From: Narcine bancroftii
Taxonomy: Eukaryota
Direction: 5' to 3'
NCBI RefSeq assembly: GCF_036971445.1
Contig: NC_091470.1
Location: 150,908,001-150,972,000, forward strand
Length of the DNA: 64,000 bases
Shown: in pieces, positions 62,447-64,000 of the stretch
Numbering within the stretch: the first letter of the stretch is position 1
Layout: each line of letters opens with the position of its first letter
Notes under the pieces: generated by a model
The model's input: the letters and a program-made list of their open reading frames with translations, nothing else
Database searches by the model: none
What the model was told of the DNA's origin: nothing
Position numbers and translations under genes: made by a program

Positions 62447-63028
62447 TGTGAGAGATGAGTAAAACTAATATGAAAATATGAGAGATGAAGAAATCTAGTA
62501 TGGATATATGTGTAATGAATAAAGCCAGTATGAATAGGATAAGGGTAAATAATAGAATGTAGGAAGTTAGTCTGAATAAGATAAGGGTCTTCTAGCTTAG
62601 ACAGAGTCAGCAAGTTCCGCATATGTAATTAGTATTTAGACAGAATTAGCAATTTCTGCATATAAGAGTTAGTAAGCCCTGAGGGTTGGGAAGGTGTGAA
62701 TAAGGACAAAGGCAGGTTGAATAAGGACAGTAAGGACAATGACATGATGGGACACACACAGGATACCCCCTGGTCCTCCAGTTCACAGAAATAGCACGTA
62801 GGCAGACAGGATTGCCTAATGCCAAACTCATCCAGGAGGCAGAAGAATGTAAGGGGGAGGGTACTTCTATACTGAAATAAACTGTATAAAAGTTGGGTGA
62901 GCCCCAGTATGTGTGTGTATTCCCAGGGTAAGGGGAAGCACCCAACTTGGCATTGTTGTATAATAAATGTTCTTTGTTCTTAATTTTTGTCTCGAGCAAA
63001 TTCTGTGAAGGTACTTCTGTTTCTCACA
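62447..63028 (+). mobile_element. 5' LTR (582 bp) of a class I endogenous retrovirus
   Basis: TGTGAGA...TCTCACA; U3 direct repeats GAATAAGGACA; TATAAAA 62885-62891; AATAAA 62962-62967; followed by AA and a PBS. Confidence 0.92.
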
Positions 63029-63030
63029 AA

Positions 63031-63048
63031 TGGGGGATCGTCCGGGAT
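63031..63048 (+). promoter_or_regulatory. Primer binding site, tRNA-Pro
   Basis: TGGGGGATCGTCCGGGAT; one mismatch to the canonical Pro PBS TGGGGGCTCGTCCGGGAT. Confidence 0.92.
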
Positions 63049-63076
63049 CCCACTCCCTCCACTGACAGAGTGCCCG

Positions 63077-63259
63077 ATGACGAGGGTAGGTGCACCCCGG
63101 CTGATTCAGGTGGACTCACTGACGACGGGTGACTGGTCAGTGGATGAAGCGAGTGATATCCAAGAAGAGGCATTGAGAACAAATGATGGGAGGACGTTAA
63201 GGAAGCACGCTAGGAATAGCTACTGGATCCCGGTAAGAGGAATTTTATTTACCTGCTAG
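63077..63259 (+). CDS. Putative 60-aa pre-gag leader ORF
   Basis: ATG at 63077; MTRVGAPRLIQVDSLTTGDWSVDEASDIQEEALRTNDGRTLRKHARNSYWIPVRGILFTC; stop ends one base before the gag ATG. Confidence 0.3.
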   Translation: MTRVGAPRLIQVDSLTTGDWSVDEASDIQEEALRTNDGRTLRKHARNSYWIPVRGILFTC

Positions 63260-63260
63260 T

Positions 63261-64000
63261 ATGGGAGGTGTGAGTAGCAAGGGAAATAGTCCTAAGGAAG
63301 GACGGGACAATCAGATAACTAAGCAAAGTCCGTTAGGATTAATGCTATCTGATTGGGGTGCGGGGAGAACTCGCGGGAAAGACAAACAGACCATGGTCAG
63401 GTATTGCTGTCTGGAATGGGTTAAAAACCCGATAAAAAGGAACTTGGTATATTGGCCAAAGTTCGGATCCAATGAGGACTGGATGTGTCAGGCATTGAGC
63501 ATCTGGCTCTATCAAAATCAAAGAGATAATATTGAGAGCAGAGAATATGCAGCCTGCTGGCTCAGTGGATCGGTTGATCAACTGGTTTTGAATGAAAAGG
63601 AATGTAAGGACAAGAAGGATGAAGAACCTTTTATCCTTGAAACACAAGGATGGGATGTGTTACATTCCCTTCCTCCACCTTATGCTCCTCCTGTGCTGAC
63701 TCCTATCTTTCCCCTCTCTCTACCCTTCGTCATCTTCCCCTCCTCCCCCACAGCTAAAGAAAGGAGAAGAAAGTAGGGGTGGTATGATGACCCGTTCACA
63801 AAGTACTAGATTACCACCTCAATTGACAAGAGAGGGAGGAGACTTTGATTCAAAACAGTGTGAGACCCTCTGGGAGGGAAGGGCAGAACCCTTTGATTCA
63901 TTTCCCGGAGAGCAGGAATCTAGACATTATAAAGGAGAGGATAAACCAGAAATTAACTGGATGAGACCTTTACGGGAAGTTCCCATGGGAGGGGGTCTCA
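63261..64000 (+). pseudogene. gag: Retroviral gag (matrix, late domains, start of capsid), HERV-I/IP-like; +1 frameshift; runs off the window
   Basis: MG myristoylation start; SPLGLML..W...MVRYCCLEW...WPKFGSNEDWMCQAL matrix; PPPY; the +1 frame continues SLYPS...MRPLREVPMGGG to the window end. Confidence 0.9.

Follow-up and report, generated by a model that had tools for sequence, protein, structure and literature searches.

Martin et al. reportedly described, in 1997, a lemon shark fragment related to the human endogenous retrovirus (ERV) HERV-I. A lemon shark ERV is cited as closely related to a human ERV, with cross-species transfer as the likely cause, in Han 2015 (PMC4422223). The pages consulted of Xu et al. 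2018 (PMC6001957), a survey with three cartilaginous fishes, describe the clade Jin, which contains the gammaretroviruses, as infecting amniotes only and as having a mammalian root. Class I ERVs of gamma-related type have been mined as full-length elements by Chen et al. (10.1101/2021.11.23.469661) from genomes including those of cartilaginous fish; the portion of that work consulted reports gamma-type-env ERVs in six cartilaginous fish, three of them with >500 copies, together with gamma-related Pol clades, and names the elements ERV-GA.a-Ara and ERV-GA.a-Cpu. Judging by the names, Ara would denote a skate, Cpu a bamboo shark and G a gamma-related element. The lemon shark ERV and these two elements resemble the element presented below in being gamma-related class I ERVs of sharks or skates, a comparison made by description only. 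The lineage has likely already been glimpsed in sharks and skates. The consulted portions of PMC4977317, PMC10699275 and PMC4133949 hold nothing on a HERV-IP-type elasmobranch lineage, and our literature search returned no paper on such a lineage in electric rays; the supplementary ERV-GA set of Chen et al. may include it.

The closest known human ERVs are HERVIP (HERV-IP10, LTR10) and HERVADP, of the supergroup HERVIPADP. According to the parts consulted of Vargiu et al. (PMC4724089), HERVIP has primer-binding site (PBS) types P, I, k and c, with P first, carries one zinc finger and is kin to the chicken element ChiRV1, while HERVADP has PBS types F and h; the PBS is considered there an unstable trait.

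Here we describe the 5′ end of a class I ERV with a Gag of the HERV-IP/HERV-ADP type, found at the end of a 64,000-nucleotide stretch of DNA (the whole of which we call the window). Very probably the host into whose germ line it integrated is an electric ray or a close batoid, and the element is a single dead member of a large family. Taken alone, the locus is a decayed ERV copy of an ordinary sort, relatives of which, one with an intact Gag, are already present in NCBI ray annotations; the phylogeny of the family matters more than the copy in the window.

The 5′ LTR, the leader and a solo LTR

The features of the long terminal repeats (LTRs) and leader are as follows.

62443..62446, + strand: candidate left target-site duplication GTAT, its 4-bp length taken from the GTGG of the solo LTR
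62447..63028, + strand: 5′ LTR, 582 bp, with terminal inverted repeat TGTGAGA/TCTCACA
62885..62891, + strand: TATA-like box TATAAAA from a pattern scan, putative in function, also in the solo LTR
62962..62967, + strand: polyadenylation signal AATAAA from a pattern scan, putative in function
63031..63048, + strand: tRNA-Pro primer-binding site, starting two bases past the LTR, 17/18 bases matching
63230..63238, + strand: candidate splice donor CCG/GTAAGA for the env mRNA
56998..57457, − strand: solo LTR (460 bp) belonging to this family, with a different U3, flanked by the duplication GTGG at 56994-56997 and 57458-57461

The 5′ LTR shows the hallmarks of a class I provirus, namely TG...CA ends, promoter and poly(A) signals, and a PBS directly downstream. 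It contains AATAAA three times, and the copy at 62962 alone has a counterpart in the solo LTR. The PBS 18-mer has one mismatch to the PBS labelled P (Pro) in table S6 of Vargiu et al. (PMC4724089), a source seen in part; the match is unique in the 64-kb window, and 0 of 100 shuffles gave any. The donor is the sole GT[AG]AG site in the leader. The LTR is depleted in CpG (observed/expected 0.14). A 30-bp tandem duplication (2.1 copies) opens the 5′ LTR at 62449-62510 and is absent from the solo LTR.

The solo LTR lies 5 kb upstream. Aligned with the 3′ part of the 5′ LTR it matches in 213 of 249 columns, and both end on the same base; R and U5 are common to the two LTRs and the U3 regions differ. 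This second copy with the same end fixes the boundaries of the 5′ LTR independently. The solo LTR interrupts a small inverted-repeat element, an uninterrupted sister of which, near 56750, has a single GTGG. Because GTGG stands on both sides of the solo LTR and once in the sister, the family makes 4-bp duplications, so that for the element under study GTAT can fairly be predicted to follow the 3′ LTR.

The solo LTR is missing from the first-pass annotation of this DNA, which had otherwise proposed a clean LTR, a Pro PBS and a leader donor near 63233. The LTR, with its TATAAAA and AATAAA conserved in the second copy, and the PBS were both borne out; the donor motif is present as proposed and remains a candidate from its sequence.

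The host element split by the solo LTR (56901-57496) is small and non-coding, with terminal inverted repeats and CAGTGG... ends, and we take it to be hAT-like. Related pieces lie at 56708-56799, 32799-32885 and 52421-52478.

Gag and its relatives

The gag region is read in two frames.

63261..63776, + strand: first gag frame, with a Met-Gly start at ATG 63261 and a stop at 63774-63776
residues ~19-104 of the first gag frame, + strand: matrix domain, from the predicted fold and the similarity to Narcine Gag
63672-63683, + strand: PPPY motif in the first gag frame
63700..63999, + strand: second gag frame, truncated where the window ends, with a p12-like linker and PLREVPMGG as capsid start

The Gags nearest to the window are those of Narcine bancroftii (72%). 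One of them, P0363 (XP_069769097.1), has the same linker and capsid start; the first frame is 72% identical to its residues 1-137 over 137-139 aa and the second frame 57% identical over 96 aa to its residues 153-244. Since the similarity to P0363 switches from the first to the second frame, we place the gag frame break near 63,710-63,725, in a C/T-rich tract; it might be an assembly error. P0363 is a complete, intact Gag of 563 aa from the same sub-lineage, whereas the window copy is frame-broken. We assume that the Met-Gly start leads to myristoylation and that PPPY has a late-domain role. Each matrix and capsid motif named in the first-pass annotation is present, with gag starting at ATG 63261; its words 'clean' and 'well-preserved' were not borne out, because the frame that encodes the matrix runs into a stop at 63774-63776 and another frame holds the linker and PLREVPMGG.

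An AlphaFold model of the matrix, made from 36 sequences, has a mean pLDDT of 76, rising to ~90 across residues 21-100. The best match to the model among 48,161 chains is the MoMLV matrix (1mn8; Z 9.9, rmsd 3.0 over 81 residues), followed by RSV (Z 6.3), with HIV (Z 5.2) lower still. Gamma-type matrices also came top in Foldseek, at weak E-values of 0.06-0.4. For the N-terminal domain of Gag, a fold of the MoMLV matrix type is predicted. A gamma-type matrix with a Gag_p30 capsid is found when the window copy and its nearest full-length relative are taken together, the matrix by this model and Gag_p30 in P0363 (E 4e-29), the window holding the first capsid residues only. Pfam gave no family in the two gag pieces of the window, Rfam no match anywhere in the window, a PDB sequence search with the matrix no match under E 0.9 and the ESM Atlas only unrelated clusters under 0.9. 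No match to pol was obtained within the window, which ends at 64000.

A first search with the window Gag gave three matches, all from Narcine bancroftii, and phmmer, run as a full scan, returned 162 relatives at E 0.001. Twenty of these were checked, among which the nine clusters with species names came from two bamboo sharks, one snake and six birds. When the Narcine Gag P0003 served as query, 23 of 50 matches carried a name, 8 of them from elasmobranchs, 13 from birds, one from a snake and one from a mammal, an armadillo; ray-finned fish were absent from these 23.

Among human ERVs, the motifs SPLGLML, WPKFGS and PLREVP were found in 2 of the 47 Gag entries of Vargiu et al., a set of which 28 headers were viewed and the long entries searched in part. 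These entries are 10410 (HERVIP) and 10420 (HERVADP); the header of the former reads 'herv4_10410', while in the consulted part of the paper's table 10410 is HERVIP and 10760 is HERV4. HERVI in the sense of Vargiu et al. (taxorder 10250, HERVERI supergroup), so far as its entry was seen, has none of the motifs and has a different Gag start of the MLV/HERV-E type. Four looser motifs were absent from 10 reference genomes (8 gamma-type and the WDSV-like L051 and L054). The element shares with HERVIPADP, besides these three motifs, the Pro PBS listed for HERVIP (17/18), and P0363 has one CCHC zinc knuckle, as HERVIP does; the nucleocapsid of the window copy would lie beyond the window.

P0011, an unnamed protein that we labelled HERV-IP-like by eye from its match to supplement entry 10410, shares 39% identity with the window matrix over 145 aa; matrix identity to it is 39-47% in all, and the window branch is separate from the branch of HERV-IP, armadillo and snake. 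Bird Gags, compared as relatives of ChiRV1 and other bird class I ERVs and including no sequence named ChiRV1, have an identity of 31-45% with the window matrix and of 47-57% with the capsid of P0363, and form a branch of their own. Gammaretroviruses share the class I affinity and the MoMLV matrix fold, but their matrix is only 22-25% identical in the alignment. Epsilonretroviruses, represented by L051, likewise share the class I affinity but no matrix sequence similarity, and no upstream Met-led accessory ORF was noted in the window element. We take L051 to be WDSV-like from its layout and length, and its PBS candidate to be of the His type. It gave no match below E 5 to the window matrix or the P0003 Gag, as a single epsilon reference, and stands on a very long branch in a quick-method Gag tree. 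Across 14 reference retroviral genomes, one of which (12,708 nt) is laid out like WDSV, tblastn with the window matrix gave no match under E 0.05. A pattern scan for a His PBS gave 7 loci.

The first-pass annotation had called the Gag HERV-I/IP-like and closer to amniote ERVs than to epsilonretroviruses. The name stands for HERV-IP/HERV-ADP, by the motifs in 2 of 47 entries and by the Gag clade described below, and falls for HERVI (10250), the Gag start of which is unrelated. The second statement agrees with the lack of an L051 match below E 5, one epsilon reference being compared, and with the grouping with P0011. By these sequence comparisons the first-pass interpretation is partly supported, and its class I, HERV-IP-type assignment holds at the level of Gag. 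The cartilaginous-fish host that it proposed is likely, the nearest Gags being those of Narcine bancroftii.

Phylogeny of Gag and reverse transcriptase

The Gag tree was built on matrix and capsid from 25 rows, after exclusion of the WDSV-like row, of near-duplicates and of rows without a name; 27% of its columns are occupied in the window row. The window is sister to P0363 (99/97), and the pair is then joined by P0003 (100/99). They lie in a clade of 22 rows (100/100) that stands apart from the three gammaretroviruses and unites elasmobranch, bird, snake and armadillo Gags with HERV-IP-like ones; the window falls with P0011 in the phylogeny that had been suggested as a check on its classification. 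An earlier matrix-only tree was set aside for a spurious row, P0211 (score 1.8).

Shark and ray Gags occupy at least three places in the tree, mixed with amniote Gags. Monophyly of the elasmobranch Gags, a group named after earlier trees had been viewed, is rejected by the AU test (p 0.003 with 25 rows, 0.001 with 23 rows). The window lineage branches first, with the remaining 19 rows grouped at only 89/84, and the AU test does not reject its union with the other ray lineage (p 0.116). P0004 from Chiloscyllium plagiosum (XP_043534218.1) groups with HERV-IP-like, armadillo and snake Gags (97/98 with 23 rows, 93/96 with 25 rows) and, on this sequence placement, may be the best single candidate for a water-land jump.

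The non-monophyletic elasmobranch Gags, the placement of P0004 and the lack of a named ray-finned-fish relative together point either to repeated host jumps between water and land or to very old lineages lost in teleosts. One could go further and see in sharks and rays an old reservoir of the HERV-IP/ADP-ChiRV1 group, with the electric-ray lineage deepest, the elasmobranch lineages interleaved with those of bird, snake and mammal, and more than one crossing between sea and land. We hold this to be rather doubtful. If true, it would overturn the amniote-only, mammalian-rooted gamma-like clade, as drawn in the part consulted of Xu et al. 2018 (PMC6001957). The elasmobranch Gag pattern bears on the origin of gamma-like retroviruses, a question that can be tested with current ray and shark genomes.

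For reverse transcriptase (RT) we used as proxy the stingray gene model P0220 (Hypanus sabinus), which has a Gag of HERV-IP-like type together with RT and belongs to a different sub-lineage from the window. The RT tree has 58 rows, with 43 of the 120 matches listed and 14 references, the human HERV-IP RT not among them. The P0220 RT falls in a 28-row clade of bird and reptile gamma-like sequences (99/97), away from the WDSV-like row, and is nearest to a rattlesnake Pol and three unnamed Pols (99/84). Over residues 312-518 it shares 71% identity with the Pol of Crotalus tigris, and with three unnamed Logan Pols the figure is 74%; the bird and reptile Pols closest to it reach 62-74% identity, gammaretroviruses 48-51% and the WDSV-like reference 41%.

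State of the copy, rival explanations and related gene models

Fifteen sequencing runs contain part of the region, and four were compared over 61400-64000. Every LTR and gag bin is covered in three of the four, X1 and X5 (both organism A) and X6 (organism B). X5, which may be RNA, has cover on the flank too and so gives no sign of transcription. In X1, 8,475 records fall across the whole stretch 61400-64000, LINE flank included, with thousands of related contigs over LTR and gag; the depth is 13-33 on unique flank versus 18,598-51,106 on gag bins, a summed contig depth and not a copy number. The family is very repetitive. Nearly all other X1 contigs, among those listed, differ from the window copy at many LTR and gag positions, as expected for the private mutations of an aged copy. 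One exact 475-nt contig spans the flank and reaches 25 bases into the LTR, which is below the 31-letter rule for a bridge; X1 may be the source of the assembly. In run X10 (organism C, 55% read) there is cover on the LINE flank and on no LTR or gag bin, a lack that does not prove absence.

In organism C, a contig of 1267 nt corresponds to the flank at 62297-62436 and ends ~10 bases short of the LTR; it could be an empty orthologous site or a mere repeat fragment. The flank is repeat-derived: on the minus strand at 60707-62268 an open stretch (61396-62268), ~180 bp past the end of which the provirus lies, adjoins a LINE-type RT fragment that carries an ALKBH8_N domain (60710-61330).

Three other explanations were weighed against a decayed copy in a batoid germ line. 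The provirus could be young and intact or nearly so, its gag break a sequencing error, a reading compatible with the same classification. The clean LTR signals and PBS, the position of the break in a C/T-rich tract and the intact Gag P0363 in Narcine speak for it; we nevertheless think it improbable in view of the many differences between the window copy and nearly all other X1 contigs listed, the PBS mismatch and the LTR CpG ratio of 0.14. The contig could also be chimeric or contaminated, with a tetrapod ERV joined to fish DNA, as might be suggested by the similarity to amniote ERVs and by the fact that no contig formally bridges the junction of flank and LTR. This is extremely unlikely: the closest proteins come from ray gene models located on contigs of chromosome scale, a host repeat 5 kb away is interrupted by a solo LTR whose target duplication is perfect, LTR and gag both occur in runs of organisms A and B, and the exact 475-nt contig extends from the flank 25 bases into the LTR.

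The remaining explanation concerns the part of the element beyond the window, where its pol would lie. A HERV-IP-type LTR and gag could be joined there to an epsilon-like or other pol and env, in which case the element would not be HERV-IP-like by the usual RT classification. Incongruence of pol and env is widespread in fish and amphibian ERVs, according to the portion consulted of Chen et al. (10.1101/2021.11.23.469661). Such recombination is nonetheless quite improbable here, given that ray models joining such a Gag with RT exist (P0220 and P0365) and that the RT of P0220 nests in the bird/reptile clade at 99/97.

Under the preferred reading, a dead copy of a large batoid family, the ancestor would, by established retrovirus biology, have been transcribed from the LTR, with reverse transcription primed by tRNA-Pro and integration through a 4-bp staggered cut. 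It would have made a myristoylated Gag with matrix, PPPY late motif, capsid and one zinc knuckle as in P0363, and an env mRNA spliced from the leader donor. The family would have spread through reinfection or retrotransposition, solo LTRs, among them that 5 kb upstream, would have arisen by LTR-LTR recombination, and the window copy would have decayed after integration. Its pol, env and 3′ LTR are predicted downstream, beyond the window.

Narcine gene models for ERV Gags comprise P0363, P0001-P0003 and P0360-P0362, all named only 'uncharacterized protein' at NCBI. Scans for related loci gave nothing with P0220 or P0289 in viral contigs, nor with alignment A5 in metagenomes. P0001, P0002 and P0360, which lie on different contigs and fall into one cluster with P0361 and P0362, have a non-Gag tail in common right after the capsid start, which may reflect an amplified defective derivative or a common splice in the gene models. 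In Chiloscyllium punctatum, the Gag model P0167 ends in a hydrophobic segment within its C-terminal 140 aa; this tail, which had no match in Pfam or the Vargiu supplement, presumably resembles an env transmembrane tail. Elsewhere in the window, on the plus strand at 21092-23692, an open frame of 866 aa that contains an RVT_1 domain (E 9e-36) is likely a fairly young LINE ORF2.
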